Positions 1 to 32,113 are shown, counted from the first letter of the stretch. The stretch is 64,000 nucleotides of DNA from a candidate division TA06 bacterium B3_TA06 (GCA_005223075.1 NJBO01000002.1:1836-65835), one strand, 5' to 3'. Translations and numbers: made by a program. Notes: generated by a model not told the origin, from the letters alone.

Positions 1-728
1 ATGGAGAAGAAGCTGGTGCGTTCGGCACCTCCGTTCAGCAAACCCCTGATGGCGGATACATAATCGCTGGGTTTAAGGCAATCCCCGAGCCGCCTGATCA
101 CTGGGTGAAGTATGATTTTTGGCTCCTCAAGACGGATGAGAATGGAGATACTTTGTGGACACGCATCTACGACTGGGAAGAATCGGATCAAGCCCAAAGC
201 CTTGATCAAACAATGGACGGAGGATACATCATTGTCGGGTGGAAAGGTAACGCATCACCAACTGGTCTTGCCTATATGTGGTTGGCTAAAACCGACGAAG
301 CAGGCGATACCCTTTGGACGCGCACCTTTGGGGAGCGCAATGGTTCAGGTCAATGCGTTCATCAGACCCTTGACGGTGGCTACATCATCACCGGGGTGCT
401 GGATGGGAATCTTTGCCTGATCAAGACCGACTCTCTGGGCGATACCACCGAGGTCCCTACGGTTTCCGAGAGCCTACCTCTTGAAACTGAGACCAACTGG
501 CATATCGTTTCCTCCATTGGCCGCAGCATCGTTCTTCAATACAAAGACCTGCCCCAAGGCTTCCACGCATCAGTATTCGACGCCACAGGCCGCAGGGTGG
601 ATGAGATACACTCAGGCCAAGCGTCCGGGATCATCGCCTGGGGCGGAGGATACGAGCCTGGTGTTTACTTCATCAAGGCGATTTCAGATAATCCAAGCAC
701 GACTCGAAAGGTAATTCTAATCCAGTAA
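1..728 (+). CDS. 5'-truncated secreted beta-propeller repeat protein with C-terminal T9SS-type sorting domain. The frame is open from position 3, so the window begins inside the gene.
   Basis: Frame 3 is open from nt 3. It carries repeated 'DGGYII.G...KTDE.GDTLWTR' blades. The C-terminal ~75 aa (HIVSSIGRSIVLQYKDLPQGFHAS.FDATGRRVDEI...GVYFIKA...KVILIQ) match the Por/T9SS CTD pattern seen in the other cargo genes here. Confidence 0.7.
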   Translation, partial: GEEAGAFGTSVQQTPDGGYIIAGFKAIPEPPDHWVKYDFWLLKTDENGDTLWTRIYDWEESDQAQSLDQTMDGGYIIVGWKGNASPTGLAYMWLAKTDEAGDTLWTRTFGERNGSGQCVHQTLDGGYIITGVLDGNLCLIKTDSLGDTTEVPTVSESLPLETETNWHIVSSIGRSIVLQYKDLPQGFHASVFDATGRRVDEIHSGQASGIIAWGGGYEPGVYFIKAISDNPSTTRKVILIQ

Positions 729-894
729 TAGGCGGGCCGACCTGAGGCGAAACGCGCGGTCAAGATCGCGAACGTCGGTCCCTACAGTTTCACTCTGCGA
801 TCTTTTACCCTAAAGGGCACAAGTGTCCGAAGGAGAAAAGAAGCATTTAACGGGGCGCTCACAGGGGACGTCATGGAAAGGTAGAATAGGAGGA

Positions 895-2436
895 ATGATG
901 AAAAGACTATCCGTGATTTTAACTCTCACGGCTGCGATGCTAGGTTTTATTCCTTCACACCTGGCCGCAGCAGACGATGTAGTAGATACCCTGGGGTTCA
1001 TAGTGAAGACTCAAAACGCTGAAGCGCTAGAGGTGCTTGTTGAGGATAAAGGGCTGGAAATCGGCCCGCTGATTACGTATCCGAACCCTTCAGATGAAGT
1101 TCTTGAGGTGTTCGGGTGCTACTTCATCGTGACCATCCCCCAGGAATTACACTCGATTCAGAACAGCATCGTTGATGAGCTTGAAACCCTGCCAGGGGTT
1201 GAGTACGTGGAGCCGAACCTAAGTATACCGGTTGAACTTCATGTTGAGCAAGGAACTATGCAAGAGTCCTTTCAAAACCCATTCAACATGCCAGACACGT
1301 TCGACGACCCTTACACACCGAACGATCCTATGTTCCCGAACCAATACGGCCCACAGATTACCAAGGTAGATTGGGCGTGGAACCTCTCAACCGGCGAGGG
1401 TGTGAAGATAGCCATACTTGATGCCGGTTTCGATGTACATCATGAAGACTTGATTGATAACTTGGATCTAGAGAACGCTTACGACTTTACAGACGACGAT
1501 ACTATCGTTGATGGATTGCAACATGGAACTTGGGTTACAGGAATTGCAGGAGCAAAAATAGACAACGGTATCGGAATAGCCGGTGTTGCAGGTAACTCTT
1601 CTATTCTGCCTTTGCGTGTTATAGGGGGTAGCGGACAGTTGCATCCTTACCTTGTAAAAGCAATTATCTATGCGGCGGATAAAGAGGCAAGGGTGATTAG
1701 TATGAGTATAGGAACCATCGTCCCTTCCCAGACGACCGAGGATGCAATAGATTACGTCTGGGAGCGAGGGGTATTCGTATGTGCCAGCGCCGGCAACTCA
1801 AACAAAGATGAGCTTCCGTATCCCGCGAGCTACGGACACGTAATGTCGGTTGGAGGCACGGATTCGGAAGATGAAAGATGGGATGATGGTGATCATGGTT
1901 CAAATTTCGGATCAAACGTTGATGTCTATGCTCCGGCAGACTCGATCTTTACAACCGATCTGGACGATAGCTATGGATATCCATCATTCCCTTCCGGTAC
2001 TTCCTTTTCAGCTCCTCACGTTGCGGGTTTAGCTGCCTTGATATGGGACGTACATCCTGATTGGACAAACCAGCAGGTCTGGGACAAGATAATTGAAAGT
2101 GCAGACACCATAACCATTGACAAGGGCAAGGTACTGCGCATGAACGCCTGCAAAGCGCTGGATATAGTTCCCGGAATCACCGAACACCCAGTGGCAGAAA
2201 CGGCGGAATGGAAGGTACTCTCCTCGATTGGTCAGCGGATCGTCCTCAAGTACCATGATCTCCCTCAAGGTTTCCACGCCTCAATCTTCGACGCCACAGG
2301 ACGTAAGGTTGACGAGATAGAATCCCCGGCTCAAAAAGGGGTTTTGACTTGGGGAGAAAATCACAGCCCTGGCGTTTACTTCATTGTGCTTGGCGACAAA
2401 GAGGTGTCAGTCCAAAAGGTTATCCTGATAGAGTAA
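895..2436 (+). CDS. S8 subtilisin-family serine protease, secreted, with C-terminal T9SS sorting domain
   Basis: Catalytic triad motifs AILDAGFD (Asp), HGTWVTGIAGA (His) and GTSFSAPHVAGLAAL (Ser). A signal peptide MMKRLSVILTLTAAMLGF follows the AGGAGG ribosome-binding site at 888-893. The C-terminal tail ...GRKVDEIESP...GVYFIVLG...KVILIE is a T9SS-type CTD. Confidence 0.9.
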   Translation: MMKRLSVILTLTAAMLGFIPSHLAAADDVVDTLGFIVKTQNAEALEVLVEDKGLEIGPLITYPNPSDEVLEVFGCYFIVTIPQELHSIQNSIVDELETLPGVEYVEPNLSIPVELHVEQGTMQESFQNPFNMPDTFDDPYTPNDPMFPNQYGPQITKVDWAWNLSTGEGVKIAILDAGFDVHHEDLIDNLDLENAYDFTDDDTIVDGLQHGTWVTGIAGAKIDNGIGIAGVAGNSSILPLRVIGGSGQLHPYLVKAIIYAADKEARVISMSIGTIVPSQTTEDAIDYVWERGVFVCASAGNSNKDELPYPASYGHVMSVGGTDSEDERWDDGDHGSNFGSNVDVYAPADSIFTTDLDDSYGYPSFPSGTSFSAPHVAGLAALIWDVHPDWTNQQVWDKIIESADTITIDKGKVLRMNACKALDIVPGITEHPVAETAEWKVLSSIGQRIVLKYHDLPQGFHASIFDATGRKVDEIESPAQKGVLTWGENHSPGVYFIVLGDKEVSVQKVILIE

Positions 2437-2649
2437 GAGATCAGCGAGCTGTGACAAAAGGGCAGGGGTATCCTTGAGAATCCAGGCACGGGAGTAATTC
2501 CAGGTGTTAAAATATCATTATATTCCCGGAGACAAAAACTGTGAATCAGGATGCCTTAACGGTCTTGGACAGTCTGCATTATACTCTTAATACCCTTGAC
2601 AGAATCTTTTATTGGACTATAATCCGTTACCAACCAAGGAGGAAGAATC

Positions 2650-3324
2650 GTGAAAAAATATCTTATCGCTCTAGCCCTTTTAATCCCCGTAATAGCCATG
2701 GCTGGCGAACTCAACATGGCTGTAACCGACGATTTCGTCAACTCGGTCAAGGCGGTTGAGGAGAATGTTGAGGAAGCCGGAGAGTTGTTGGACAACGCAG
2801 AGGAAACCTTCTACACCCTTGTCGACTTAATAGTAGAACTTCCCGAAATCAGCACTCCTAAAGAAGAAGTAATGGCGGTACTCGATAGCGCCACAAAGAA
2901 AAAGGACATAAAAGCCGCTGAGGAGCTTTACGAGAAGTACCTGGCGGAAACTGCGGCACGTGAAGAAGCATTCCTGGAACTGTGGAACAACAGCGAAACC
3001 AAACAAGGGATCGTAACCTACTTCAACAATCGCAAGGAGATAGCTCTTTCCATCAAGGAAGACGCACAGAAAGCCCTTGAGATAGATATACAGGCCTTCA
3101 AGGACCTCGCTGATCTACCAGAGAAATTCAAGGCTGCCTCAGAGGATATCGCCAACCAGGTCAAAGCAGATCCCACGGCCGCCTTTTCGGCCAAAAAGGT
3201 ACTCTCTGCGATAAAAGAAGCCAATGAATCCCTCAAAGCCACCAAGGAAAAGGCTACGCAACAGAAGGAAACCGCTGGGAAACTTCTGAACTGGCTGAAG
3301 GACCTGGTGAAGACGGAAGAATAG
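2650..3324 (+). CDS. secreted alpha-helical hypothetical protein (signal peptide plus coiled-coil)
   Basis: GTG start with an AGGAGG ribosome-binding site. Signal peptide MKKYLIALALLIPVIAMAG. The sequence is E/K/A-rich and helical, and a rho-independent terminator follows. Confidence 0.65.
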   Translation: MKKYLIALALLIPVIAMAGELNMAVTDDFVNSVKAVEENVEEAGELLDNAEETFYTLVDLIVELPEISTPKEEVMAVLDSATKKKDIKAAEELYEKYLAETAAREEAFLELWNNSETKQGIVTYFNNRKEIALSIKEDAQKALEIDIQAFKDLADLPEKFKAASEDIANQVKADPTAAFSAKKVLSAIKEANESLKATKEKATQQKETAGKLLNWLKDLVKTEE

Positions 3325-3350
3325 GGCCTTATCCGTTGAGAAAATCGAAA

Positions 3351-4765: not shown

Positions 4766-4942
4766 GAAAACTCCTTTTTGAAATTCCAGAGATTGCCTGC
4801 TCGGATTCCAAGCATACGGATTAGAACCTGTTTGTCAACTCCTTGAGGAATTGTGGCCGTTTTTCCATTTAAGGACTTGAAAAATTGCCAAAACCGAGTA
4901 AGATTGTTGCAAGGAGCAATTCAAAGCAAAGAGAGGTGGTAA

Positions 4943-6328
4943 ATGGTATTATCGAGCCTTATACTGACATTAGTAGCAGGTGCAGGAAGCGGAGTGAGTT
5001 TCCATACTCAACTGCAGTATACACCTGCCCTACTGACCAAGGGGGAGGATTATGATCGAGACCCTTCCATTGAGGCGGTGATCAATCCCTACGACGCATA
5101 CTACTTCTCTCACAGGGTTTCAGCTAAGGTCGGTCTGGAGGCTTTCGGCGGGTGGGAGCTGCGGGCAATCGGATGTATCTCGCAGTCTATCATACCTCAT
5201 GCGTTTCATGTCGCGAGCTTTGACGATGGAACATACCCGCGGATTCCATACACGCTCTGGAGTTCCCGTGAGGTAAGCGTGGGCGGCGAGCTGGGACACG
5301 CCGTGCGATTCCGTAACGGAAAGGGGGATATTTACCTCGGCCTGGAGAGGGTTTGGACTGAGGTGCACGGCGAAGGGGTATTCTACCTGGATACAATAGT
5401 GGATACCTTCCCGATGTTTACCCACGGCAGCGGCATTCAAGGCCATATAGGCGTAAAGATCCCTCTGGTGACATTTGGTTGCTTTGCTCTTGGGATGAAT
5501 GCCCTGTTAATGGGAGGCAACATCCCTCAGATACCGGACAGCATCCCGGAAGGCTCGGTGTGGACAGGTGCTCACGGCCTTCCCAGGTGGGGATTCGGTG
5601 TGGGCTTAAGCCTTGGTTATGATTCCCGCAAGAATTTGGATTACCTGCCCGATTTAAGATTGAGACCTCATCTCAAGGACTCTTCTCGCCTGGTCCTGAA
5701 ACCGGCAAAGAGATGCTTTCTGCCTCCATGGATCATTCAGGGTGCTGCTTCCTGGGGCTGCGGGTTGGTGGGCGGCTCTCTGGCCAGCCTGGCTTCCCTG
5801 GCCTGGGGAGGAAACGGCATGGGGCTTGGGCTTAATATCTTCTCCTTGTGGACGGGCGACTATCCAGGCCAAAGGATCTCTGTTGCCGCCTGGAGCTACC
5901 TGGGGGTTCCTTGCGGGGCCATGCTGGGAACGGCCCTTGCCAGCAGAAGGGTTAAGCCGGGCGGCGACTGGCGGTGCGTTGCATTAGGAGCTCTAGCAGG
6001 TGACGTTCTCAGCTTTTCCATCGCCCAGGCCTATCTTCTTATCGCCGGCCCCCCTTGGCGCTACAGCCCTGAGGGAGCCCCTCCTCCCACAGGAAGAGGT
6101 AGTTCGACTTTCTACGGGGTGGTCTTGCCTTTGTGTTCTACCCTTCCGGCGATAGGCGCGGTTGTGGGTTATAACCTGAGTGTTCCCAAGGTCGAATCGC
6201 TGGAAGAAGACATGGGTTACCGACCCTCCTGGACCGAGCATTCAAGGGAGAGTTTTGTAAGTGAGTGGAATTCTTCACCTAGCAGCGAACCAACAATGAG
6301 GCTTACTTTACTGAGAGTGAGCTTCTAA
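4943..6328 (+). CDS. hypothetical Gly/Trp-rich putative outer-membrane protein
   Basis: GAGGTG ribosome-binding site 4 nt before the ATG. Hydrophobic N-terminus, many amphipathic beta-like segments, and a C-terminal ...LLRVSF ending in Phe (OMP-like). I cannot assign a family. The antisense ORFs overlapping it look spurious. Confidence 0.5.
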   Translation: MVLSSLILTLVAGAGSGVSFHTQLQYTPALLTKGEDYDRDPSIEAVINPYDAYYFSHRVSAKVGLEAFGGWELRAIGCISQSIIPHAFHVASFDDGTYPRIPYTLWSSREVSVGGELGHAVRFRNGKGDIYLGLERVWTEVHGEGVFYLDTIVDTFPMFTHGSGIQGHIGVKIPLVTFGCFALGMNALLMGGNIPQIPDSIPEGSVWTGAHGLPRWGFGVGLSLGYDSRKNLDYLPDLRLRPHLKDSSRLVLKPAKRCFLPPWIIQGAASWGCGLVGGSLASLASLAWGGNGMGLGLNIFSLWTGDYPGQRISVAAWSYLGVPCGAMLGTALASRRVKPGGDWRCVALGALAGDVLSFSIAQAYLLIAGPPWRYSPEGAPPPTGRGSSTFYGVVLPLCSTLPAIGAVVGYNLSVPKVESLEEDMGYRPSWTEHSRESFVSEWNSSPSSEPTMRLTLLRVSF

Positions 6329-6381
6329 AAACCATCAAAAGTAAGGGGGAAGTGATGCTCACAAAAGGGTGCATCTTGGGT

Positions 6382-6409
6382 TTGACAAGCTGTCAAAAAT
6401 GTGTAGATT
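6382..6409 (+). promoter_or_regulatory. sigma70-like promoter TTGACA-N16-TAGATT upstream of the TolB-like gene
   Basis: Match to the -35/-10 consensus with 16-nt spacing. It lies about 200 nt upstream of the start, so the assignment is tentative. Confidence 0.35.
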
Positions 6410-6618
6410 GTCATAAAGGGACATGACATGAATAGAAAGGTGTATATAGGAAGAGGTCCTCACACTCCCCGTTGTGATCTTTTAGTAGGATATACGTATA
6501 GGTGTATCGTGTTGGTGGGCAGTCCTTTGATAAAGAGTTTAACCCTAACCTGGAGGTGAACGGAACCTAAAACTGCAACTAAAAACCAATGTATAAACAA
6601 GCATGGAGGAGAAACAAA

Positions 6619-7803
6619 ATGTTTAGGAATAAACACCTCACAATCCTGAAGGCGCTTTGCGCCTTCCTCGTGCTCACTTTTTTCGTACCCGCGACACTTT
6701 ATGCCGCCGAAGGCGAGACCTGGATCGTCTTCGAGTGCAACCGACCCAACCCAGATGCGGAAGGCCGCACCTACTGGGATATCTGGAAGCTAGATCCGGA
6801 TGGAGATGGTTTACAATCAGACGATGGTCTCTTTGGTTTTGCATTAACTAATGACCCTAGCAACGAGTGGGATCCCACCTACTCGGTTGAGAATCAGACA
6901 GTGGTCTTCGTTTCTGATAGGAACGGCTGGCCCCATCTTTACAAGGTCAGCATAGACGGTGGATACTGGGAGGGATTTCTATTCGGGCAGTACTGCGCCG
7001 TTGACCCATGTTACAGCTTTGACGGCACCAGGATAGCCTACGCCTCCAACCAGAACGGTAACTGGGATATATACACAATGGATACGGACGGATACAATAA
7101 AACGCAGATTACCACAGACGCGGCGGATGACCGCAGCCCGTGTTTTTCCACTAATGGAAACAAGATATACTTCATCAGCAACCGGGATGCAGGGGCTATA
7201 GGCGACTGGGAGATATACGTGGTGAACAGCAGCGGGGGCACCGCAACCAAGGCGATAGTGAATGCTCAGGGCCAGCCGTTGCTTCTGGATTACACCGAAC
7301 ACGATCCCTGCTGCAGCCCTAATGATCCTGACATCATCGTCTTTGCCACTAACAAAGCCACGACAACTTACACTGAACCGGTGAACCGCATCAACTTCGA
7401 GTTGTTTAAGTATTCAATTTCCGGCAAAACTTTGATCCGCCTCACGGAAAGTTGGAATGATCCGGCTGGAGTATCAAAACAACTTTGGAACAGCTCTATG
7501 CCGTGCTTTTCGCCTGACGGCCAGCGCATCGCCTGGTCGGCTGATAACTGGACGAGACAAGGGTGGCAAGGTAATCTTCCTGAAAACCGTCCTTATAACA
7601 ACAGTTTCTGGAAACCTGATTTTGACCAAGGTTCTATTCACCAGATCTGGACATGCGAACTCGATCATATAAATAATGACCATTACTACTTTCCACCTTC
7701 ATTTTGGGGGTGGGAAAACGGACCTGTCGGCGTTGGATATGGTGATCATAAAGGTCATCAGCACCACAAGCACTACAACCCTTCTTGGGATAACCAACCA
7801 TAG
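6619..7803 (+). CDS. TolB-like PD40/WD40-like beta-propeller periplasmic protein with Trp/His-rich C-terminal tail
   Basis: GGAGGA ribosome-binding site and signal peptide (LTILKALCAFLVLTFFVPATLYA). Repeated TolB-type blades (SPDG.RIA..S.R.G, WDIY). The C-terminus is ...HQHHKHYNPSWDNQP. Confidence 0.8.
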   Translation: MFRNKHLTILKALCAFLVLTFFVPATLYAAEGETWIVFECNRPNPDAEGRTYWDIWKLDPDGDGLQSDDGLFGFALTNDPSNEWDPTYSVENQTVVFVSDRNGWPHLYKVSIDGGYWEGFLFGQYCAVDPCYSFDGTRIAYASNQNGNWDIYTMDTDGYNKTQITTDAADDRSPCFSTNGNKIYFISNRDAGAIGDWEIYVVNSSGGTATKAIVNAQGQPLLLDYTEHDPCCSPNDPDIIVFATNKATTTYTEPVNRINFELFKYSISGKTLIRLTESWNDPAGVSKQLWNSSMPCFSPDGQRIAWSADNWTRQGWQGNLPENRPYNNSFWKPDFDQGSIHQIWTCELDHINNDHYYFPPSFWGWENGPVGVGYGDHKGHQHHKHYNPSWDNQP

Positions 7804-7811
7804 GAGAAGAG

Positions 7812-9101
7812 ATGGTCAAACGTTTATTCTCATATCTTGCTCTGCTTGCAGTTTCATTAACTCCCTCAATTAGTTATGCTTCTTGGGAAATTCTTGACTT
7901 ACCTACCGACCGGGGTTTCGGCGCTATCTGGGCAATAGACGAGCAAACCATCTTTGTTTCGGGACATCAAGGACTCTGGAAGGCATTCGACGGCGCAACT
8001 TGGTCAATAGATAGCGGTTACCAGTCAAACATGATCTATTTTGTTGATGATACCTTGGGGTTCCTTAGTGGTAAGACCCTTACAACTGATGGCGGCAGAA
8101 CATGGCAGAAAGGTGATACAGTTAATGGTCATGGAATCCAACAAATCTTTTTCCCACCGGGGCAAAGTTCTTTGGGGTACGGTGTCCCTTACTTAGGGAA
8201 TATCCGGAAAACTGAAGATGGCGGCTGGCATTGGGAAGTCTTACCTACTTTTCCCGACATTTTTCCCACCAGCGATGAAGAAGTTCATACGTCACACATT
8301 TGTTTTCCAAGTGATCCCGATACCGGCTATTTAACCGCCGAGATATGGCAGATCATTTCTCTTGATCCATTTGAAGCAGAAACGTACCACAGCTACTTCA
8401 AAACCACGGACGGCGGGCAGAGCTGGGTTTTGAGCGGGGAAGGGCTTTGGAACGACGAATTCAAACCTTATCTCGTTGACTTTCCACAGAACCCAAGCAC
8501 AGGCTATATGGCTGGCTATGGTAAAGTATTCAAGACCACCGACGGCGGTGAAACCTGGGATACGATTTTCATAACCTCTGAAAGTTACCCTAACATCTAC
8601 GACATCTGCTTTCCTGAAACTGACCAGGTAGGCTATGTTCTGAACGACACGATGGTTCACAAAACCACTGATGGAGGTAAGGCCTGGCGAACGTTCGGGC
8701 TGGGCAAGGACACCGTTTTCCTGCGTTGTCATTTTCTCAACAACTTGGTAGGCTTCATCTCAGGCACCGGCACCACCGCCTACAATCTCCTTTACACCCC
8801 CGGCTTCGTCCTCAAGACCACCGATGGGCTTTTAGGGATAGCGGAAGAGGATTGGGTTGAGGTTGAACCTTCGGACATCAAGGTTATTTCCTCAATCGGT
8901 CACTCGATCGTCCTGTGTTACTCCAACTGTCCCCAGGGCTTCCACGCTTCCATCTACGACCCCTGTGGCCGCAAGGTTGACGAGTTGCACTCAAGTCTGA
9001 CTGAGGGCACCCTCACCTGGGGGGAAGGTGCGCCTTCCGGGGTTTACTTCATCCAGGCCAGTAGTGGCAATCCTGCTGTTCGAGTAGTAATCGTGCGATA
9101 G
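7812..9101 (+). CDS. BNR/Asp-box (Ycf48-like) beta-propeller protein with T9SS CTD
   Basis: Repeated K/TTDGG.(T/S)W motifs. Signal peptide present. The C-terminus ...VISSIGHSIVLCYSNCPQGFHASIYDPCGRKVDELHSS...GVYFIQ...VVIVR is a T9SS-type CTD. Confidence 0.8.
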   Translation: MVKRLFSYLALLAVSLTPSISYASWEILDLPTDRGFGAIWAIDEQTIFVSGHQGLWKAFDGATWSIDSGYQSNMIYFVDDTLGFLSGKTLTTDGGRTWQKGDTVNGHGIQQIFFPPGQSSLGYGVPYLGNIRKTEDGGWHWEVLPTFPDIFPTSDEEVHTSHICFPSDPDTGYLTAEIWQIISLDPFEAETYHSYFKTTDGGQSWVLSGEGLWNDEFKPYLVDFPQNPSTGYMAGYGKVFKTTDGGETWDTIFITSESYPNIYDICFPETDQVGYVLNDTMVHKTTDGGKAWRTFGLGKDTVFLRCHFLNNLVGFISGTGTTAYNLLYTPGFVLKTTDGLLGIAEEDWVEVEPSDIKVISSIGHSIVLCYSNCPQGFHASIYDPCGRKVDELHSSLTEGTLTWGEGAPSGVYFIQASSGNPAVRVVIVR

Positions 9102-9110
9102 GAGGAGGAT

Positions 9111-9437
9111 ATGCTTTGGAACAGTTCGATGCCGTGCTTTTCGCCTGACGGCCAGCGCATAGCATGGTCGGCTGATAACTGGACAAGACAAGGTTGGCAA
9201 TATGAGAAAAATCCCGATGGTTCCTATCCCAAGAGTTACTGGAAACCTGATGGGGGGCAAGGTTCTGTTCATCAAATCTGGACTCGAAGGCTGGACCAGC
9301 CTGATCACCACTATTGGTTCCCGCCTTCTTACTGGGGATGGAACGACGACGAACAGGAACCATGGCCTTGGGGGCCACCAGGGCCGGGCCATCAGCACCA
9401 CAAACATTACAACCCATCGTGGGATGAGCAGCCATAG
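9111..9437 (+). CDS. small Trp/His-rich protein, a duplicated copy of the C-terminal ~108 aa of the TolB-like protein (gene fragment or stand-alone domain)
   Basis: About 80% amino-acid identity to residues ~300-404 of 6619..7803 (LWNSSMPCFSPDGQRIAWSADNWTRQGWQ...HQHHKHYNPSWD.QP). It has its own GGAGGAGG ribosome-binding site and ATG. Confidence 0.6.
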   Translation: MLWNSSMPCFSPDGQRIAWSADNWTRQGWQYEKNPDGSYPKSYWKPDGGQGSVHQIWTRRLDQPDHHYWFPPSYWGWNDDEQEPWPWGPPGPGHQHHKHYNPSWDEQP

Positions 9438-9443
9438 GAGGAG

Positions 9444-10754
9444 ATGATGAAACACTTGTACTTAATCGCTTTGATGCTTACAGGTATAGTGAGTCCTTCG
9501 CTCGTGCAAGCCTCCTGGGAAATCCTAGATTTGCCAACGGATCGTGGTTTTACCGCAATCTGGGCCATTAATGAACAAACAATTTTTGTTATAGGCCATC
9601 AAGGACTATGGACTACTTTTGATGGAAAGGAGTGGGTTTTAGACAGCACCTATCAACCAAGCTATATCTACTTTGCAGATGATACGCTGGGTTTTCTTTG
9701 GGGCAGCATTCTAACCATAGATGGAGGACACACATGGCGAAAGGGCGATACAGTAAACGGCAATGTGGTTCCTGTTCATTTTGCTAGAGGTCAGAGCCTT
9801 GTCGGTTACGGCTTGGGTTACGATTACGCATGTAAAACCACGGACGGTGGTTGGCATTGGGATCAACTTCCCCCTCTACCAGACGTATATCCAGGTTTCG
9901 ATGAAATCATTTCGCCTGACGATATTTGTTTTCCAAAAGACCCTGACACAGGCTACCTGACTGTGACATGCATTAAGCAGTTATCTGATGGTGAGATAGA
10001 GTATCACAATAGCTACTTTAAGACCACGGACGGCGGCCAGACCTGGGTATTGAACGAGGAAGGACTTTGGAATGACGATTTCAACCCTCGCTATATCGAT
10101 TTTCCTCAAAACGCTAGTGTAGGCTACATGGCAGGCGGAGGCGGTAAGGTTTACAAGACCACCGACGGCGGAGCTACATGGGATACGGTGCTCAAGGATC
10201 GCCCTTATATCGTCAGCATGTGCTTCCCGGAAAGCGACCAGGTTGGCTATGTATTTGGTGATTCAGTAGCCCACAAGACTACCGATGGAGGCAAGACCTG
10301 GAAAGAAGCTGTGATTACACACGATTCTACTTTCTACAAATGCCACTTTATCAACGATAGTGTAGGGTTCGTTACGGGTCATAAGAATATGACTCTCTGC
10401 ATGCCCTACGACCCCGGCTTCGTTCTGAAGACCACTGACGGGCTGCTGGGGATAAGTGAGGATGACTGGGTAGATGTGGTGCCTGAGCTTGTGGAGCTAA
10501 GTGCCCCAGCCCTCTTCAGCCGCGAGCTTGCGTGTCGCTACCAGGCAAGGGAGTCGGGGCGTATACGATTGACACTTTTTGACGCCGCAGGCCGTGAGGT
10601 GCAATCTCTCGGCTGGTGCGAGGTAGGATGTGGAGAGGGTTCCTTAAGCTTTAACGGAGCCTTGCTCCCGACAGGAGTATATTTTATCCGGGTGGAGTTT
10701 AGTTCCGCTCAGGGAAGCCAAAATCAAAAACTGCGGGCCGTGAAGGTCCAATGA
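9444..10754 (+). CDS. BNR/Asp-box (Ycf48-like) beta-propeller protein, tandem paralog of 7812..9101, with a divergent T9SS CTD
   Basis: The N-terminal ~350 aa align with 7812..9101 (SWEILDLPTDRGF.AIWAI.EQTIFV.GHQGLW...). The C-terminus ...LTLFDAAGREV...GVYFIRVEF...KLRAVKVQ is CTD-like. Confidence 0.8.
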   Translation: MMKHLYLIALMLTGIVSPSLVQASWEILDLPTDRGFTAIWAINEQTIFVIGHQGLWTTFDGKEWVLDSTYQPSYIYFADDTLGFLWGSILTIDGGHTWRKGDTVNGNVVPVHFARGQSLVGYGLGYDYACKTTDGGWHWDQLPPLPDVYPGFDEIISPDDICFPKDPDTGYLTVTCIKQLSDGEIEYHNSYFKTTDGGQTWVLNEEGLWNDDFNPRYIDFPQNASVGYMAGGGGKVYKTTDGGATWDTVLKDRPYIVSMCFPESDQVGYVFGDSVAHKTTDGGKTWKEAVITHDSTFYKCHFINDSVGFVTGHKNMTLCMPYDPGFVLKTTDGLLGISEDDWVDVVPELVELSAPALFSRELACRYQARESGRIRLTLFDAAGREVQSLGWCEVGCGEGSLSFNGALLPTGVYFIRVEFSSAQGSQNQKLRAVKVQ

Positions 10755-10769
10755 TTTAAGGAGGGAAAG

Positions 10770-13700
10770 ATGATACACAAAACCTGTAACTGGAAAACTG
10801 CATGGTTAATAGTGTCCATGTTTCTGCTTACTTTTACTAGCAAGGTCGCGGGTGAAGAGTTCGATAACCGTTTTCTATTAGGGGTCTATAGTGACAAAAC
10901 CTATCACTCGTTAGATGAAACAAGACACGACGAACTACACTTGAATCTTCTTTTTGGGACGACCACAGGAGTTGGTACATACAGTAGTTACTGTAGTGAA
11001 GATCCTAGACCACAAAATGCTGTATTCTTTTATGCGGGTGAATCGGATCGTCTGGAACCGGCAGTAACCACACCAACAACTCTATCTGAATGGAAGAATG
11101 TAACTGTTGATGCTGCTTTGAGTAGATATCCGGGCAGTGGGACATTAATACACAGAATGTCTTGGCACTTGGGTGAGGAGCATCCTGAATTCTACGATCC
11201 CTTATTTTATGATGGCATGAATTTCCTAATCTCTGAGAAAATACCTGCTAATGAACTGGCCACTTTCTGTGCTACCTTTACTGTTCGGCCTGACATCTTT
11301 TTAGGTGTTGAGGGGCTGGACCTGGGTTGGTATTATTTCGAGCCATTCCTCACCATTTACAAAACAACGGACACTTACTATCAAGATTCCCTTCAGAAGT
11401 ATTGTGTAGATGTGTACGACTTGGTTGCAAAAAAAGTAAAGAATTACCGACAATGGGGATTCTGCCCGAATCTGCAATTAGGAGTGATTCTGCAGGGTTT
11501 CTATGATAGCGATGAAAACGGTGACCCCAGTGACCCTGATGGACATCGCCTACCCACTCCTGAAGAAATGAGCTTTGAAGGATGGCTCACTTTATCTCGG
11601 GGAGCTAAAGCCATGCTGTATTATCTTTATCATTACTCGGATGAAGGTACTCCTAGTTCTCAAATAGGTTTGATAAATTCAGATCGTTCACCGAATAGCA
11701 CTTTTGACCCAGCTGCTGATTTCTACGCGCAGATTAAAGCCATAGACGATAATCTAAAGGGCGCTCCCTACAACTACGCCAACGGACTCTACGAAGTTGA
11801 GCTTGCTAAGTACAAATCTATTCGTGGAGACATGTTGACCCCTGAGTTTTTCGTACGCGAAATCATTGTTGATCCGCCACCGGGTAAGACAAAAGATCAC
11901 GTTTACACTGAACTTAGCTTGCACTACTCCCCATATGGGCACAATTTCTTCCTTTTGCTTAATCGTTCCCTCCACCTTAGCGAACCGGTTGAATACGACA
12001 TAACACTGTTGTGGCAAGGGGAAGGAAGTCCCATCGTCATAGATCTTACTTCGGGAGAAACAATTACCCCTGGGGTTCCTGTGCAAGGTGATGAGTTTAT
12101 GATTCACGTGACCCTTGATCCAGGAGAGGCCGGTTTCTACATAATAACCAATAGCAGTGGAGGTGGGACCGAAAGGGAGCTCTACCTTTGTGGCGAATGG
12201 AGAAATCGCGGGGTTGCTCCCTGGGAGCAAATGAATCCGCAAGATCCCTCTGATCACGGGTACGCGCATTGCAGATGGGAGTGGCTTAAAGGCAAACCTT
12301 TAAACCTGACTGGAATGAGCACATGGAAACACCCCTGTGGCGTGGAAGATTGGGAGCCTGGCCCCTACGATTTTATTCGGTCCATCAATCTGAATTGGGG
12401 CTATTTCTACGATAGGATGGACGCGGACTGCATGAACTATGTGAAGGTAGGCGAACATTCCTACGGAGACGATCTCAGTGATATCGAAGATGGCTTGGTC
12501 GGGACTAAATCGAACGAGATCACGATACAAGAACCCGAAGGTCCCGAGCCTGGATGTCCAGAAGTTTACACCTTCGTTGAGCAAGATACTGCAACCTGCA
12601 CTTATTCGTTCATGGAAAACAACACAATATTGCCTTTTTCCGAAACGGCTGTGACTCTAGAAGAGATTCGTTTAGACCTCTTGAAGATTGATGTGCTTAA
12701 TATCCATACAGGACATTACTACCTCAACATCCGAGAAAACGACGACGAAGAAACCTATCTTTATGGTGCGACACTGTGGGTGGTGGACCATCCCGAGGGT
12801 ACGATAGTCGCTACCTCGTCAGATAGCAACATCTACGTCTACTCTGACGTAGCCAAGCCGCTCACGTGCGTGGATCAGAGTAGTATCGATCGCTATGAGG
12901 AGGTCGTCTATCGAGACGATCAGGCTTTCATCGGATCGGACAACTCTTATCTCACGGTTAGCTTCCCCAATACTAGCTGGATCAATAAAGGAATACTTAT
13001 ACTAACAGGTCTGCCTGACGGGATTGCGGAAATCGATTGGTCCAAGAACTACTACTGCCTGGTCCAAAAATCAAATGGTCAGGGCGGCTGGATTCCTTCA
13101 GGTGAGGCGTTTGCCCGCAAGAACCCGTCACTGTGGTTGGTAGATGTATCTGACGCTTCCGATACCACCTTCCGCATCGATTGCTTTGGTGATTCCTGCT
13201 GTATCAACTATGTAGCCCTGGTTAAACTGGAAGACAATGGCTGGACGCAAACCGAAGCCCCGATTGATTCCGCAATACTTTGGATTGTTGATCCGCCCGG
13301 TACAGCTCCTGTTGGAAGTAATGTTGAGGATTTAATTTCTGATCCCCAAACTGCTGGGATTATTTCACCATGCGGACAGTTGGCACTTTCCTTTACCGAG
13401 GTTCCGCCTGACACTACCTGTCAGCGCGATTTCGTCCTCCAAACATCCGGCTATTACATCCCAGGCATCGGTGGTGGAGATGGCGGCGAACAGAGTACCA
13501 CACCATCTTTGTGTTTCGATCTGGAGGTCCAGACGCTTCACGGTTTAAGGAAGGTCATGCTGATAAACTACGAGGTTCCGGTAGCCACCGACGTAAAGAT
13601 TGCTATCGTGGACGTTGCGGGGCGCGTGGTAGCAGAGCCTTTGAAAGAAGAGGTTACACCTGGCAGGCATCAACTGGAGTGGAACTGGTGCGACGACGCT

Positions 13701-13787
13701 GGGCGAAAGGTTGCTTCAGGGGTATACTTCGTCAAGATGGTTGCAGGTGAGTTCACGGAGGTGAACAAGGTTGTTTTGACAAAGTAA
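10770..13787 (+). CDS. large (1005 aa) secreted hypothetical protein with T9SS CTD
   Basis: Signal peptide. No motif I recognise in the body. The C-terminus ...KIAIVDVAGRVVAEP...GRHQLEWNW.DDAGRKVASGVYFVKMVAG...KVVLTK is CTD-like. AAGGAGG ribosome-binding site. Confidence 0.75.
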   Translation: MIHKTCNWKTAWLIVSMFLLTFTSKVAGEEFDNRFLLGVYSDKTYHSLDETRHDELHLNLLFGTTTGVGTYSSYCSEDPRPQNAVFFYAGESDRLEPAVTTPTTLSEWKNVTVDAALSRYPGSGTLIHRMSWHLGEEHPEFYDPLFYDGMNFLISEKIPANELATFCATFTVRPDIFLGVEGLDLGWYYFEPFLTIYKTTDTYYQDSLQKYCVDVYDLVAKKVKNYRQWGFCPNLQLGVILQGFYDSDENGDPSDPDGHRLPTPEEMSFEGWLTLSRGAKAMLYYLYHYSDEGTPSSQIGLINSDRSPNSTFDPAADFYAQIKAIDDNLKGAPYNYANGLYEVELAKYKSIRGDMLTPEFFVREIIVDPPPGKTKDHVYTELSLHYSPYGHNFFLLLNRSLHLSEPVEYDITLLWQGEGSPIVIDLTSGETITPGVPVQGDEFMIHVTLDPGEAGFYIITNSSGGGTERELYLCGEWRNRGVAPWEQMNPQDPSDHGYAHCRWEWLKGKPLNLTGMSTWKHPCGVEDWEPGPYDFIRSINLNWGYFYDRMDADCMNYVKVGEHSYGDDLSDIEDGLVGTKSNEITIQEPEGPEPGCPEVYTFVEQDTATCTYSFMENNTILPFSETAVTLEEIRLDLLKIDVLNIHTGHYYLNIRENDDEETYLYGATLWVVDHPEGTIVATSSDSNIYVYSDVAKPLTCVDQSSIDRYEEVVYRDDQAFIGSDNSYLTVSFPNTSWINKGILILTGLPDGIAEIDWSKNYYCLVQKSNGQGGWIPSGEAFARKNPSLWLVDVSDASDTTFRIDCFGDSCCINYVALVKLEDNGWTQTEAPIDSAILWIVDPPGTAPVGSNVEDLISDPQTAGIISPCGQLALSFTEVPPDTTCQRDFVLQTSGYYIPGIGGGDGGEQSTTPSLCFDLEVQTLHGLRKVMLINYEVPVATDVKIAIVDVAGRVVAEPLKEEVTPGRHQLEWNWCDDAGRKVASGVYFVKMVAGEFTEVNKVVLTK

Positions 13788-13797
13788 AACTGCTCTA

Positions 13798-13825
13798 TTG
13801 ACTTGGAGTATTTAAAAGATAGACT
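13798..13825 (+). promoter_or_regulatory. sigma70-like promoter TTGACT-N16-TAGACT for 13880..15499
   Basis: Consensus spacing, about 55 nt upstream of the start codon. Confidence 0.4.
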
Positions 13826-13879
13826 TGCGGGATGAGAGATAGCCTTTCTTTCCGTATTTAGTTAAGTAAAGAGGACATA

Positions 13880-15499
13880 ATGGTGAATTTTGTTTTTTGG
13901 CTGAGTGCTATTTGTTTCGCCGCACAGCCTATTGTTTCTTGGCAGAAGGTGATTGATAATGGTGATGAAGATAGGTTCCATGGCTTGGACCTTTACAATG
14001 GGGACGTATATGCCGGTGGTGAAAGATACTTTGGTGAGAGCTTTGAGTACGATCTGTGCTTCTTTGTATTCGATAGCGAGGGTAGTGAAAAGCAGAGAAC
14101 CTTCTATTGGGAACGCAATGGGCGAGATGAGTGGGGGAACGATGTTGCCGTGTTATTTTCGGGTAATGTCGTGGTTGTGGGAACTTATGAGACAACCGGA
14201 CAACCCGGTTGGTATACGGTATGGTTCTCGCCTACAGGTGAATTTCTTCACTACGATTCAACTTATGCGGAAGCGAACTATTCATACAACGCAACGTGCA
14301 TTGCAGTATCGTTGGACGATACTTGTTACGTAAGTGGCTGGAGTAGTAAGGACTTAAAAAATGTACGAATGGTTAAATACAGTCCCGAAGGAACCAGGAT
14401 ATGGCGAGAATACTTCCATGGACCAGATATAGGCGACGCTGTGAGTATCGCGCTTGACTCACGAGGATCGGTTTTCGCGTTGTGTAAATCTTTATGTTTG
14501 TGGGGCGGCTGGACAAAAAAAGGGGATTCCTTAGATTTCGTTAATAAATACAGCACCAACGCGGCAGAAGGAGCGGCTATACGGATTAACTCAGCGGATC
14601 ACGTATTTATAGCCGGAGACGTGGAGGGTTCAGACAGGGACTTCATGCTTCTTAAGTATCGAACCGATGGAGAGCAGCTATGGTATACCCACAAGGCTTA
14701 CGATCTTGGCGGAGAGGAAGAATGCCGGGACATGGCATTAGACCCCATATCCGACTGCTATCTTGCAGGTTGGCAGCTAAGAGGCGAGGATGAGGATATA
14801 GCCCTGGTCAAGACCGACTCGGCAGGCAAGATGCTGTGGTCATGGGTGGATACTGTCGAGGGTAAGCAGGAGATCGAGGCCATAGAGGTTGACGAAGAAG
14901 GCTACATCTACCTTGCAGGTTCGCATCACAACGGCGATAACTGGGACATGCTGGTTATGAAACTCCGCCAGCCCTTAACCATCTCCGGCAGAGTCACAGA
15001 CTCGGCAGGCAAGCCCATGGAGGACATACCTGTCGCCCTCACCGGTGACACCACGGTTGAGGTCTTAACCGACACCGGGGGTTATTATACCATAGAGGTC
15101 TACAACGGCGGTGAATATACGGTATCTCCCAACCTCCCTGGCTGGACGTTTGAGCCCTCCTCCCATACTTACTCGCCGCTTGCGCACAGAGAATTCGATC
15201 AGGACTTTGCCGACGGCAAATGGACAGGGGTAGGTGAGCAGTCCATAGAGCGATCGCCTTCCTGGAAACTTATATCTTCCTGCGGAAAGGAGGTGGTTCT
15301 TAAGTATTCCAACTATCCGGAAGACTTCCGTGCTGGCATCTACGATGCTTCAGGCCGCAAGGTGGACGAAATTCACGCCTCCGCTGGCGCGTCGTCCGGT
15401 ACTATCACGTGGGGTGAACATTACGGGCCAGGGGTGTATTTCATCTACGGCCAGTCTAAGCGTTCCTCAATCATCCAGAAGGTGATTCTGATCCGATAG
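13880..15499 (+). CDS. secreted beta-propeller-like repeat protein with carboxypeptidase-regulatory-like domain and T9SS CTD
   Basis: Signal peptide. Repeats resemble those of the first ORF. The TISGRVTDSAGKPMEDIPVAL...GGYYTIEVYNGGEYTVSP segment is typical of the CarboxypepD_reg fold. The CTD is ...LISSCGKEVVLKYSNYPEDFRAGIYDASGRKVDEI...GVYFIYG...KVILIR. Confidence 0.75.
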   Translation: MVNFVFWLSAICFAAQPIVSWQKVIDNGDEDRFHGLDLYNGDVYAGGERYFGESFEYDLCFFVFDSEGSEKQRTFYWERNGRDEWGNDVAVLFSGNVVVVGTYETTGQPGWYTVWFSPTGEFLHYDSTYAEANYSYNATCIAVSLDDTCYVSGWSSKDLKNVRMVKYSPEGTRIWREYFHGPDIGDAVSIALDSRGSVFALCKSLCLWGGWTKKGDSLDFVNKYSTNAAEGAAIRINSADHVFIAGDVEGSDRDFMLLKYRTDGEQLWYTHKAYDLGGEEECRDMALDPISDCYLAGWQLRGEDEDIALVKTDSAGKMLWSWVDTVEGKQEIEAIEVDEEGYIYLAGSHHNGDNWDMLVMKLRQPLTISGRVTDSAGKPMEDIPVALTGDTTVEVLTDTGGYYTIEVYNGGEYTVSPNLPGWTFEPSSHTYSPLAHREFDQDFADGKWTGVGEQSIERSPSWKLISSCGKEVVLKYSNYPEDFRAGIYDASGRKVDEIHASAGASSGTITWGEHYGPGVYFIYGQSKRSSIIQKVILIR

Positions 15500-15658
15500 A
15501 CAAGGGCAAGGGGTTTAAACCCCTTGTCAACCCTATGCGCGTCCCAGGGGTATGTTATGGGTTGACATACCCCTAAAATCAGTTAAAATTAGTAAGGATT
15601 TTACTTGCCGAGTTATGGTTTTGGATAAGTAGAGAAAAATGTCCCTCAAGGAGGGAGA

Positions 15659-16354
15659 ATGCAGAGATCGAGAGTTATCTTTGCCGTACTTATGCTGCTG
15701 GCGTTGCCGGGATTAGGAGTAAGTACAGCAGCCGCCGACAGCCTTGACATAACCCCTTACGAGATAATCTCGCCGGAGAGAGTCCAGCAAGATCCTTTCA
15801 GGCCTCGGGCGTGGTTCGCTGAACGCGGAGGCGTAGAAGTCCAGGAGCCGTCTTTGATTTGCCTTATTGTAGATCTGAGCTCTCAAGACTCGGTATACAT
15901 AGACTCCATCCCTCTGTGGAGAGTGAAACCTTATGACACCATAAAAGCAACGTTTGACGAGACTGATCCCGCGCCCAACATCTACGAGATCACCTTCTGG
16001 GCGGAGAATGATTGGCCCACAAATATCAGCTACCCGCCGCTTGTGGACACCTTCTACTACAAAGTAGGTATAACGGAAACCCCTGTCCCCGGCGAGTTCA
16101 ATCTGGACCCAGTCTCCCCCGATCCGACTACACGCTCTGTTACTGTGAGTTTCTCTCTAGGGCACCCTACCGAGATCACCCTTTCCGTCTATGACTTAAC
16201 CGGTAAGATTGTAACCACGCTTGCGTCCGGAACATGGAACCAAGGCAGACACTCTGTGCGTTGGTATCCTTCGAACGCGCCGCCTGGCGTTTACTTTCTG
16301 CGACTTAGGACACCTGGGTTCTCAGCATCCCGCAAGGTGGTACTGCTGAACTAG
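15659..16354 (+). CDS. small secreted protein with T9SS CTD
   Basis: Signal peptide MQRSRVIFAVLMLLALPGLGVSTAAA. The CTD is ...ITLSVYDLTGKIVTTLASG.W..GRHSVRW.....PGVYFLRL.....RKVVLLN. AAGGAGGG ribosome-binding site. Confidence 0.75.
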   Translation: MQRSRVIFAVLMLLALPGLGVSTAAADSLDITPYEIISPERVQQDPFRPRAWFAERGGVEVQEPSLICLIVDLSSQDSVYIDSIPLWRVKPYDTIKATFDETDPAPNIYEITFWAENDWPTNISYPPLVDTFYYKVGITETPVPGEFNLDPVSPDPTTRSVTVSFSLGHPTEITLSVYDLTGKIVTTLASGTWNQGRHSVRWYPSNAPPGVYFLRLRTPGFSASRKVVLLN

Positions 16355-16406
16355 ATTTTTTACAACTCAGAATAAGTGTCTGCGCAGGGTTCAGGGTATA
16401 AAAAAC

Positions 16407-16434
16407 TTGACGTGCACCTATAGATAATTATAAT
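16407..16434 (+). promoter_or_regulatory. sigma70-like promoter TTGACG-N16-TATAAT for the C10 peptidase gene
   Basis: Near-consensus -35 and a perfect -10 with 16 nt spacing. An AGGAG ribosome-binding site and the ATG at 16462 follow. Confidence 0.5.
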
Positions 16435-16461
16435 CGGGCAATCTGGTAAAAGGAGATCACA

Positions 16462-18048
16462 ATGTTGCAGATAAATCTCTGGGCAAGGAGGACGCTTGCC
16501 GCTACGGTTTCCCTTTTTGTAATCTTGGCAGGCTGGCTTCCGGCTGCAACGGTTACCCCCCAGGAGGCTACAAAAGCGGCAATGACCCACATCCAATCCA
16601 TGACCAACGTATGGAGCCAACTCCCATACCTTGAGAATCAAACCATCACCGTAGACAAACTCAAAGAGCTGTGTGAAACTGAATCAAACCAGCTTCTGGG
16701 TTACGTCGCCGAGCTAACACCAAGAGGATTCGTGGTACTTTCTGGAAATACCCAGCTCGCCCCGATAATTGCCTATTCGTATCGCTGCAACTTCCCATGG
16801 GAAGGGAATGCGGATAATATCCTGCGTTGTATGCTAAAAACCGACCTCGCTTTAAGAGAAAAAGCCGTCTCTATAACGGACGCAAACATCTTAAGTGCGA
16901 ACAACTCTTCATGGGAGAACTACCTTGCGGGCGAAGTATTGCTTGAGCTAACCGGGCAGTGGCCCTCTCCAGGTTCCACCCACACGGGTGGATGGGTTGA
17001 AACCACCTGGCGTCAAACTTACCCTTACAATGCCTACTGCCCCAAAGATCCGGGAACAGGCAAGCGATGCGTGGTGGGGTGCGTTGCCACGGCGATGTCC
17101 CAGATCGTAGACTATCATTCCGATAGAAGAAACTACATGAGCGACATTCAACTCTACCGCTATGACAGATATGTCTCAATGATGACAAGTCCATATATAC
17201 GCATTGACCAGGATTCCTCTACATACGACTTCCCCTCGTTCAACGCCCTGAATGGATACCTGGAAGATTTGAGGAATATTTACCTTGCAGATTCCACCCC
17301 GGGTTATTACGATGTTGCCGCGCTTGCCTTCACCTGCGGCATCTTTGTCAAGATGCACTACTCAAGCAGTGGGTCGGGAACCAACGTAGATCGCGTTTCA
17401 TTCGCCTTGATGTTCAAATTTGGATACCCATCGGCGATGAATGTGGACAAAAACACAGCGTGGTTCTACGACACCTTAAGCCAGAACATGAAAGATGCCC
17501 TGCCTGCAGAGCTTGGTATACACTATCCGGACGGTTCATACGGCCATGCGATCGTCTGCGACGGACTGCGTGAGATTGAAGGCGAGGACGACCAGTACCA
17601 TCTGAATTTTGGATGGGGACCCGACAGCCCTGGTCCGATCACAACCGCATGGTACGTCCTACCTCAAGGGATGCCTCTCGGATACAGGGTGATATCAGGC
17701 GGAGTACTATCCATCAGACCCCCTGAAGGCTCCTACGTAGCGGAGCGCGCAGAACCACATCCTTGCCGGTTCTTTATTGAACAACTCTCCCCTACCCTGC
17801 AGATCGCTCCGGCTGCACTCACCTTATCTTACGGACTCCCCTGCCCTGCAAGGGTGCGTTTGAAGATATACGACATCAACGGCCGGATGATCAAGACCCT
17901 CCTGGACGAAGATATGCCTGCCGGTTACCATCAAACAGAATGGGACACGCGAGACAGAGAGGGCCGCGAGGTCGCGTCCGGGATCTATTTCTGCGTGCTC
18001 GAAACAAAGGAAGGAATTTACAAGACAAAAGCCGTCGTAATACGATAA
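16462..18048 (+). CDS. C10-family (streptopain/SpeB-like) cysteine peptidase with pro-region and T9SS CTD
   Basis: Catalytic Cys context GCVATAMSQIVDYH, as in SpeB/fragipain. The His is in YGHAIVCDGL. Signal peptide. The CTD is ...VRLKIYDINGRMIKTLLDED...EVASGIYFCVLETK...KAVVIR. Confidence 0.85.
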   Translation: MLQINLWARRTLAATVSLFVILAGWLPAATVTPQEATKAAMTHIQSMTNVWSQLPYLENQTITVDKLKELCETESNQLLGYVAELTPRGFVVLSGNTQLAPIIAYSYRCNFPWEGNADNILRCMLKTDLALREKAVSITDANILSANNSSWENYLAGEVLLELTGQWPSPGSTHTGGWVETTWRQTYPYNAYCPKDPGTGKRCVVGCVATAMSQIVDYHSDRRNYMSDIQLYRYDRYVSMMTSPYIRIDQDSSTYDFPSFNALNGYLEDLRNIYLADSTPGYYDVAALAFTCGIFVKMHYSSSGSGTNVDRVSFALMFKFGYPSAMNVDKNTAWFYDTLSQNMKDALPAELGIHYPDGSYGHAIVCDGLREIEGEDDQYHLNFGWGPDSPGPITTAWYVLPQGMPLGYRVISGGVLSIRPPEGSYVAERAEPHPCRFFIEQLSPTLQIAPAALTLSYGLPCPARVRLKIYDINGRMIKTLLDEDMPAGYHQTEWDTRDREGREVASGIYFCVLETKEGIYKTKAVVIR

Positions 18049-18123
18049 GAGCTTCTTCGGGCTAGGATAGTCACTAACTCCGCTGAGTTGGTGATGACGT
18101 AAACTGCTCCTTCCTCTCCATGG

Positions 18124-18360
18124 TTGATACATCTTCCAGCAGCACAGGCTCAGCGTGCCCCAGTCGGGTGCTCCAGTCTGTACTATTGTATCCGAACGGA
18201 CGCTTCTATTTTCGACATCATAGGCCGCAAGGTTGATGAGATACGCGCCTTCGGCCAAAGCGAGACGGTAACTTGGGGCAAGAACCACAATCCGGGGGTC
18301 TACTTCATAGTGCCGAGTGAGGGTAAGGCGTCGGCACAGAAAGTCATCTTGATAAAATAA
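18124..18360 (+). pseudogene. orphan T9SS C-terminal-domain remnant (gene fragment)
   Basis: A 78-aa ORF whose last ~50 aa (IFDIIGRKVDEIRAFGQSETVTWGKNHNPGVYFIVPSEG...KVILIK) are a complete copy of the conserved CTD subfamily. No signal peptide or cargo domain is attached. Confidence 0.55.
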
Positions 18361-32087: not shown

Positions 32088-32113
32088 CGCTCCTCCTTTA
32101 TACTCAGAGTTCT

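Follow-up and report, generated by a model that had tools for sequence, protein, structure and literature searches.

Why do several genes of different content within one stretch of bacterial DNA end in the same tail of about 75 residues, and was this tail spread among them only recently? The question arises from a stretch of 64,000 nucleotides (hereafter the window) out of a 265.5-kb contig of candidate division TA06 bacterium B3_TA06, an uncultured member of the WOR-3/TA06 bacteria. A preliminary description of the window had read the shared tails as a sign of recent domain shuffling or gene conversion. The analysis reported here points instead to an old subfamily of the type A C-terminal sorting domain (CTD) of type IX secretion systems (T9SS), kept under selection, whose conserved DNA cores act as crossover points and one copy of which, E, is a decaying orphan. 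This combined explanation is given a probability of roughly 0.7. The lineage-specific subfamily is called the S-tag in what follows. B3_TA06 and all comparison genomes are metagenome-assembled genomes (MAGs), and the window has syntenic counterparts in four sister MAGs, at nucleotide identities of 89-95% (E44_bin36), 82-89% (CSMAG_1024), 83-86% (RS_17_4) and 83% (MAG095).

Five open reading frames (ORFs) on the plus strand, ending at positions 728, 2436, 9101, 15499 and 18360, all carry the tail where the preliminary description had placed it and fit the consensus it had drawn. Gene A, cut by the window start, encodes beta-propeller repeats of the SBBP/delta-60 type (3..491; DGGYI..G....KTD..GDTLW in the translation), 46-52% identical to S-tagged propeller proteins of sister genomes, followed by S-tag A (492..728 with the stop codon, 492-725 without; 136 bits against the S-tag profile). 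In gene B a subtilase (Peptidase_S8; PF00082, E 5e-46) with a signal peptide and a propeptide-like N-terminus (895..2202) precedes S-tag B (2203..2436 with stop, 2203-2433 without; 141 bits), and in gene C a BNR/Ycf48-like beta-propeller (7812..8870; PF14870 and PF15902) precedes S-tag C (8871..9101 with stop, 8871-9098 without; 130 bits). Gene D combines beta-propeller repeats with a CarboxypepD_reg-like domain (13880..15259; Pfam and NCBIfam matches) and ends in S-tag D (15260..15499 with stop, 15260-15496 without), which the alignment with sister genomes marks as chimeric. The profile was built from the five tails A-E, and tags A-D match it with E-values of 1e-38 to 1e-42, well outside what chance would give. 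When the last 75 residues of all 14 window genes with a CTD-like tail are compared, tags A-D are pairwise 51-58% identical at the amino acid level over these 75 residues, and all other pairs only 12-38%; the observation that the tags are more alike than the other CTDs of the window is thereby confirmed. The view that they sit on five unrelated proteins holds in part. The subtilase B and the BNR protein C are distinct, but A and D are both propellers of the SBBP/delta-60 type (their bodies match at 36% over 73 amino acids, E 9e-5, and D has an NCBIfam propeller match), and E is a remnant.

At the DNA level the five tags are far apart. Their codon alignments give nucleotide identities of 44-59% and third-position identities of 0.28-0.41, synonymous differences estimated according to Nei-Gojobori are saturated (pS 0.67-0.90; dN 0.27-0.58), and the longest exact runs common to window tags measure 8-14 nt. 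The term “near-identical”, first used for these tails, is accordingly dropped, with amino acid identities of about 50-58% and nucleotide identities of 53-59% among A-D and of 44-57% in pairs with E. Among 71 near-full-length tags from 13 genomes, the mean nucleotide identity within genomes (0.607) is close to that between genomes (0.592). Because synonymous sites are saturated, exact runs are short and there is no excess similarity within genomes, the window copies are probably paralogues of long standing whose similarity is maintained by purifying selection at the protein level; strong amino acid conservation in the window does not imply recent conversion. The nucleotide alignment of the five tags that had been proposed as a check yielded no exact run above 14 nt, and judged by the refuting criterion of the preliminary description itself, the inference of recent shuffling or conversion does not hold for the window copies.

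That the five window tags were homogenised by conversion, or shuffled among non-homologous genes, only recently is thus highly improbable. It would agree with an amino acid identity far above that of the other CTDs and with the conversion tracts that do occur in sister genomes, and one count runs in its favour and counter to the great age proposed here: identical residues are encoded by identical codons in 148 cases, against 117 expected from window codon usage. The small excess is only slightly above expectation, as if a bit of residual common ancestry or a position-specific codon preference remained. The saturated synonymous sites, the low nucleotide and third-position identities, the brevity of exact runs and the missing within-genome excess in 13 genomes all stand against recent homogenisation, as does a C-type cargo that has kept its S-tag in a distant genome. 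In this homologue of C (locus L036 of CSMAG_461), the body is 50% and the S-tag 60.5% identical, and the combinations of tag and cargo are apparently old, because the homologue already carries the S-tag.

Comparison among sister genomes shows that DNA appears to break and rejoin inside the tag, at cores encoding GRKVDE and PGVYFI. In the window itself, a strain-specific 10.5-kb island on the plus strand (4858..15420), delimited by breaks of blastn synteny, encompasses genes for a 461-aa protein and a TolB-like protein together with genes C, F, G and D. None of the four sister genomes has this island; synteny breaks at 4857 on the left, and the right edge lies inside tag D, as homology resumes at 15421 with E44_bin36 and at 15343 with CSMAG_1024. 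The last 13-26 codons of tag D and the DNA downstream have their orthologous counterpart in the tag of another gene in the sister genomes, a paralogue of gene H (43% identical to it) which is missing from the window, and the private signature RSS.IQKVILIR is common only to tag D and this H-paralogue in E44_bin36 and CSMAG_1024. Gene B in turn has been deleted from E44_bin36; its last ~6 codons (VILIE) are all that is left at the syntenic site.

Further junctions are found at the same cores outside the window. An orphan tag in locus L078 is chimeric: as far as GGCCGCAAGGTGGATGAG (GRKVDE) it follows the P0018-type orphan at ~95% identity, and from there on window tag B at ~93%. The orphans P0018 and P0019, which occupy the same locus in E44_bin36 and RS_17_4, are ~98% identical up to PGVYFI and unrelated beyond it. 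The paralogues L008 and L014 of E44_bin36 are 51-74% identical in the body, 96-98% from ~330 to 90 nt before the stop codon and then 61%; the paralogues L012 and L017 of MAG095 follow the same pattern, and in both pairs the tag region reaches 89-98% against 41-80% in the bodies. Between the orthologues L025 and L018, with bodies 96-100% identical, a 95-nt patch of ~79% follows directly after GRKVDE, and a search for its donor among the 71 tags gave no match above 68%. Over these 71 tags, the codon runs best conserved as nucleotides are columns 27-37 (VFDA.GRKVDE) and 56-60 (GVYFI), that is, the observed crossover sites. Of 83 distinct S-tags in a census of tag status, 59 are on long ORFs, 11 are cut by contig ends, two are frameshifted and 11 are orphans. 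The chimeric L078 tag, the island edge in tag D, the 96-98% tracts and the 11 orphans thus support, on evidence from sister genomes, the earlier idea of the tag as a joint for gene shuffling. The protein P0007, considered as a double-crossover mosaic, was not used, its tag being located at a contig start.

A caveat to the crossovers is that repeated tags are the places where assemblers mis-join, so that some of the chimeric junctions may not be real. The genomes compared are without exception MAGs, and the 11 tags cut by a contig edge indicate that assemblers do break at S-tags. To attribute chimeric tags, island edge and orphans as a whole to faulty assembly or binning at repeated sequence is nevertheless unlikely to be correct: orphan E and its flanks were assembled independently in B3_TA06 and E44_bin36, with 95.5% identity, and variants of it occur in two further MAGs; the E44 locus is identical in a genome at NCBI, a metagenome at JGI and a Logan assembly; and the exact k-mers common to the tags of one genome are mostly too few for joining, with runs of 8-14 nt.

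The fifth tail, E, had been described as a complete tag attached to nothing. It lies in a 78-aa ORF at 18124-18360 (P0025; a TTG start read as M), annotated as hypothetical protein CEE36_01595, with the C10 peptidase gene I (16462-18048; CEE36_01590, P0044) directly ahead of it. The tag is not complete, as only its last 52-53 codons and the stop (18199..18360, or 18199-18357 without the stop) match the profile, at positions 25-77 and with 89 bits, and the 26 codons before them (18121..18198), its first third, are degenerate except for the leading tryptophan. In-frame stop codons are located upstream, one at 18046 that ends gene I and one at 18100. E lacks both cargo and a signal peptide, its TTG is not preceded by a Shine-Dalgarno sequence, and near E there is no intrinsic terminator-like site and promoter-like matches are weak (9/12 positions). 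In E44_bin36 the same orphan is found behind the C10 peptidase gene (96% identical over the last 51 residues), and CSMAG_1024 has a copy at this place with a different 3' half and a frameshift between CYG and PGVYF. The copy in RS_17_4, again at this place, has an intact first third (TNWEIVSSVGQQIVLRYSDSPQGFHAVIFD) and the same frameshift as that of CSMAG_1024. E is regarded as a probably non-functional, decaying pseudogene fragment that has been annotated as a hypothetical protein; it would have arrived, or remained, in the ancestor that the four genomes share and have decayed since.

E could also be thought of as the former tag of the C10 peptidase, displaced when gene I gained a new CTD, as in the tips of Rhs and contact-dependent growth inhibition (CDI) loci. 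The layout invites this, since a body with another CTD, a stop codon, ~70-115 nt and then an S-tag occur in this order twice, in gene I with E and in a subtilase with P0015 in E44_bin36, and homologous cargos with different CTDs are known from C and F, from H and its paralogue, and from B and the L004 subtilase. Yet all gene I orthologues read, down to 47% identity, have kept the same FlgD_ig-type CTD of their own, and in two outgroup contigs with C10 peptidases 60-61% identical no tag remnant follows the gene. Because of these orthologue CTDs and the remnant-free outgroups E is not taken as the displaced tail of gene I, and its candidacy as the old tag of the peptidase, very improbable on this evidence, was rejected. 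The earlier view of the remnant as a footprint of shuffling is retained as far as the footprint is concerned, though it is a decayed and incomplete one and not a former tag of gene I. In the E44_bin36 locus mentioned above (L004, 1521-3651), the subtilase is 38% identical to B with a different CTD, and the ORF with the complete orphan S-tag P0015 starts ~10 nt after its stop, a layout like that of gene I and E.

That orphans (E and the 92-aa ORF of P0018 type are examples) are maintained for a purpose, whether as silent cassettes or landing pads that give or take up segments of the tag or as small functional proteins, is quite improbable. The P0018-type orphan does persist as an intact ORF of 91-92 amino acids at the same locus in three genomes (the copy of a fourth, MAG095, is interrupted and truncated), E44_bin36 and RS_17_4 are 100% identical there over ~210 nt with flanking genes at 81-85%, orphans carry different 3' halves in different genomes, and orphans make up 11/83 tags. 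E, on the other hand, lacks a signal peptide and a Shine-Dalgarno sequence, has a decayed first third and is frameshifted in two sister genomes; the L065 orphan is broken by an inserted element; no orphan was found to be a demonstrable donor of a tract in an expressed gene; and the debris of rapid gene turnover is a simpler account of the same facts.

Some minor features accompany the orphans. The patch of complete identity covers the P0018/P0019 orphan and the 80 nt before it (L001 ~5920-6130 versus L083 ~4920-5130), and could mean either that the lineages exchanged DNA recently or that the DNA as such is constrained. Another CTD micro-remnant, GEGVYFIRPEGKKAGVRKVIIIN, is located immediately upstream of a 224-aa gene, beside an orphan S-tag (L078 ~1700-1790, L083 ~5480-5570 and the same in L084), so that several tag ends crowd one intergenic region at this locus. 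On the 3' side of E, a GC-rich double hairpin (18361..18520, plus strand; fold z -3.1) contains the motif CCAGGGGAGGGGAATTAG. The same motif is found 24-70 nt after the stop of S-tagged genes or orphans in L009 (4252-4269), L034 (1458-1475), L057 (4224-4241) and L078 (1659-1676), and in L065 (3529-3546) inside the broken tag. Judging from this last copy, the hairpin may be a small element, mobile or terminator-like, that moves together with the tag.

What, then, is the S-tag? From profile matches and a structural model, the five segments appear to form a lineage-specific subfamily of the T9SS type A CTD, and hence to belong to a known family. Generic type A CTDs (TIGR04183/PF18962; RgpB, NucA and RemA) are likewise C-terminal, about 75-80 residues long and folded into a seven-strand beta-sandwich, they share with the S-tag the motifs D..G and G(V/I)YF and a basic/hydrophobic end, and they are carried, in many copies per genome, by Sec-exported peptidases, propellers and adhesin-like cargo as the S-tag is. 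An AlphaFold2 model of tag B, based on an alignment of 32 tags, has seven strands and a predicted local distance difference test (pLDDT) score of 88.2, and its best PDB match in Foldseek is 8glk_D, the NucA CTD in a T9SS complex (TM 0.68/0.76, root-mean-square deviation 2.8), with further matches to the RgpB CTD (7pq4), the RemA CTD (8gl6_D) and PorZ (5m11). The tag is thus predicted to adopt a seven-strand beta-sandwich like that of the solved CTDs. Its position is extreme, as the profile match in A-D ends 0 residues before the protein end, and Sec signal peptides are clear by eye in the translations of B (MMKRLSVILTLTAAMLGFIPSHLAAADD) and C (MVKRLFSYLALLAVSLTPSISYASWE), with a shorter and less certain putative one in D (MVNFVFWLSAICFAAQP). 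Type A CTDs route Sec-exported proteins through the T9SS translocon and are then cleaved off by PorU (2024 review, PMC11205867); by analogy, S-tagged cargo would be exported by a T9SS and its tail removed.

Several results tell against this assignment. With TIGR04183 the scores are 26.5 bits for A, 23.0 for B, 21.2 for D and 18.2 for E, so that only A and B reach the cut-off of 23 bits, and C is missed, without a match to TIGR04183 or PF18962 at E <= 0.01. All PF18962 matches remain under the gathering score (16.8-18.8 against a cut-off of 27 bits). The Foldseek E-values are weak (5e-3 and worse), and generic Ig/FN3 folds obtain similar scores. Finally, neither the 64-kb window nor the loci retrieved for comparison yielded any T9SS machinery gene (SprA/Sov, PorV, PorU, PorK-N/GldK-N). 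A search of the available literature found no publication linking WOR-3 and T9SS. The S-tag also differs from generic type A CTDs: it is a tight subfamily limited to Stahlbacteria/WOR-3/TA06, with the extra conserved motifs W.V.SSIG..IVL.Y...PQGFHA and GRKVDE...TWGE, it is poorly seen by generic models (two of five copies at the cut-off and one missed), and its host phylum is outside those with a studied T9SS.

The distribution of the S-tag extends well beyond the window. An exhaustive search of 1.84 billion representatives with the S-tag profile yielded 286 clusters at E <= 1e-10 and, with the threshold relaxed to E <= 0.001, 813 proteins. Among the 150 matches listed, the tag ends at the last or next-to-last residue in nearly all and the proteins are typically 430-600 aa long, a clear exception being one 4455-aa protein with a multi-stretch match. 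The 42 strongest matches of a first database search with the five-tag profile all lacked a precomputed Pfam domain. That search returned only proteins of 42-133 aa, as if the tags stood alone, but this picture was rejected as a word-index artefact, since genome loci and the exhaustive search show most tags at the end of proteins of 430-600 aa. A scan of one genome per species gave 72 loci, almost all in Stahlbacteria/WOR-3 MAGs, with ~7-12 S-tag copies per genome (single search pattern); the genes are often arranged in tandem arrays, with five in a row in L019. In a census of cargo families among 59 full-length S-tagged proteins, 34 belong to the SBBP beta-propeller family and 20 have delta-60 repeats, the only subtilase is B, and TIGR04183 matches 30 at E <= 0.001.

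Taken together, the preferred explanation, an old sorting domain with crossover-prone cores, may be outlined as follows. Each S-tagged cargo protein would be exported by Sec, an outer-membrane translocon would recognise the folded seven-strand beta-sandwich tail, and the tail would be cut off after export. The S-tag is mainly the tail borne by SBBP-type propellers, a large family expanded in tandem in Stahlbacteria/WOR-3, and was joined long ago to other cargo as well, such as the subtilase, BNR proteins and a small H-like protein. Codons for FDA.GRKVDE and PGVYFI, well conserved as DNA, would act as crossover points in the lineage, and recombination at these cores would swap, delete or insert the DNA upstream while the 3' part of the tag stays. 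Tag D would then be the right edge of a 10.5-kb island gained or retained by such recombination, and E an orphan tag left by such gene turnover. A bolder reading, which takes sorting-tag DNA for a joint that serves recombination, with a conserved 3' cassette for docking and orphans as reservoirs or landing pads, is quite improbable. If true, it would allow the population to plug new cargo genes into a secretion pathway and to vary the tag itself, and the S-tag would be a counterpart, with reversed polarity, to the orphan modules of polymorphic toxins.

In the Rhs/CDI polymorphic toxin loci, a conserved stretch present in many genes serves as a homology arm, and displaced or truncated modules pile up beside intact genes. 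The S-tag resembles them in both respects, in the common conserved stretch as homology arm and in the orphan modules next to intact genes. The topology is reversed, however, the conserved part being 3' and the variable part upstream; toxin/immunity pairs are lacking here, and the displacement model is not supported for gene I and E. The gingipain/HagA genes of Porphyromonas gingivalis (PMC5266723) are likewise T9SS cargo genes that share repeated modules reshuffled between paralogues and strains. There the modules exchanged are adhesin domains and the CTD is simply conserved, whereas with the S-tag the crossovers fall within the CTD-coding DNA and orphan CTDs are left behind. The S-tag does not amount to a new kind of system; it adds to a known sorting domain a new subfamily that is poorly detected and, as documented here, tends to serve as a site of crossover. 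As generic T9SS tail models under-detect it, secretome predictions for WOR-3/Stahlbacteria/TA06 miss many exported proteins, which a dedicated S-tag profile would recover (at least 286 clusters carry the tag). A shared sorting signal that doubles as a homology arm for the gain, loss and replacement of secreted-protein genes also explains short annotated hypothetical proteins such as CEE36_01595.

Gene F (9444..10754, plus strand) is a tandem paralogue of C with a different CTD; its body is 58.6% identical to that of C, and the similarity stops at the boundary of linker and CTD (tail identity 29%, CTD nucleotide identity 0.37-0.48). The dN between the two is 0.34 in the body and 0.90 in the tail, which points to either a CTD swap or a strongly accelerated divergence of one tail. 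C and F lie in a tandem duplication with a unit of ~1.63 kb (7470-9101 and 9102-10754), comprising the 3' end of the TolB-like gene and a BNR gene, and the ORF at 9111-9437 is the copy of that 3' end. An 87-nt patch of the unit (7483-7569 versus 9114-9200) is 93% identical and most of the remainder ~55-70%. Further downstream, among genes on the minus strand (27269-30544 and 31359-34610), gene K (1091 aa) shares nucleotide segments of 78-93% identity with L and M at a spacing of 3618 nt. The bodies of K and M are 83% identical over 533 aa, but the two tails show no relationship; a second CTD subfamily, with identities of 34-38%, comprises L, M and N.

Intergenic regions of the window contain short repeats with hairpin potential (41268-41342, 41717-41791 and 44698-44810; 43276-43370 versus 44830-44944; and at 36272, 41016 and 44978). 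These families look like repetitive extragenic palindromes (REP) or miniature inverted-repeat transposable elements (MITE), and one pair is 100% identical over 55 nt. Tandem motifs of the GTTACGGGT type are located upstream of genes (18575-18690 in the window and 5794-5946 in L001), and the element at 18591-18674 recurs at 23962-23882 and in sister loci. An IS30-like transposase with an HTH_38 domain and an rve integrase core is encoded at 37176-38123.

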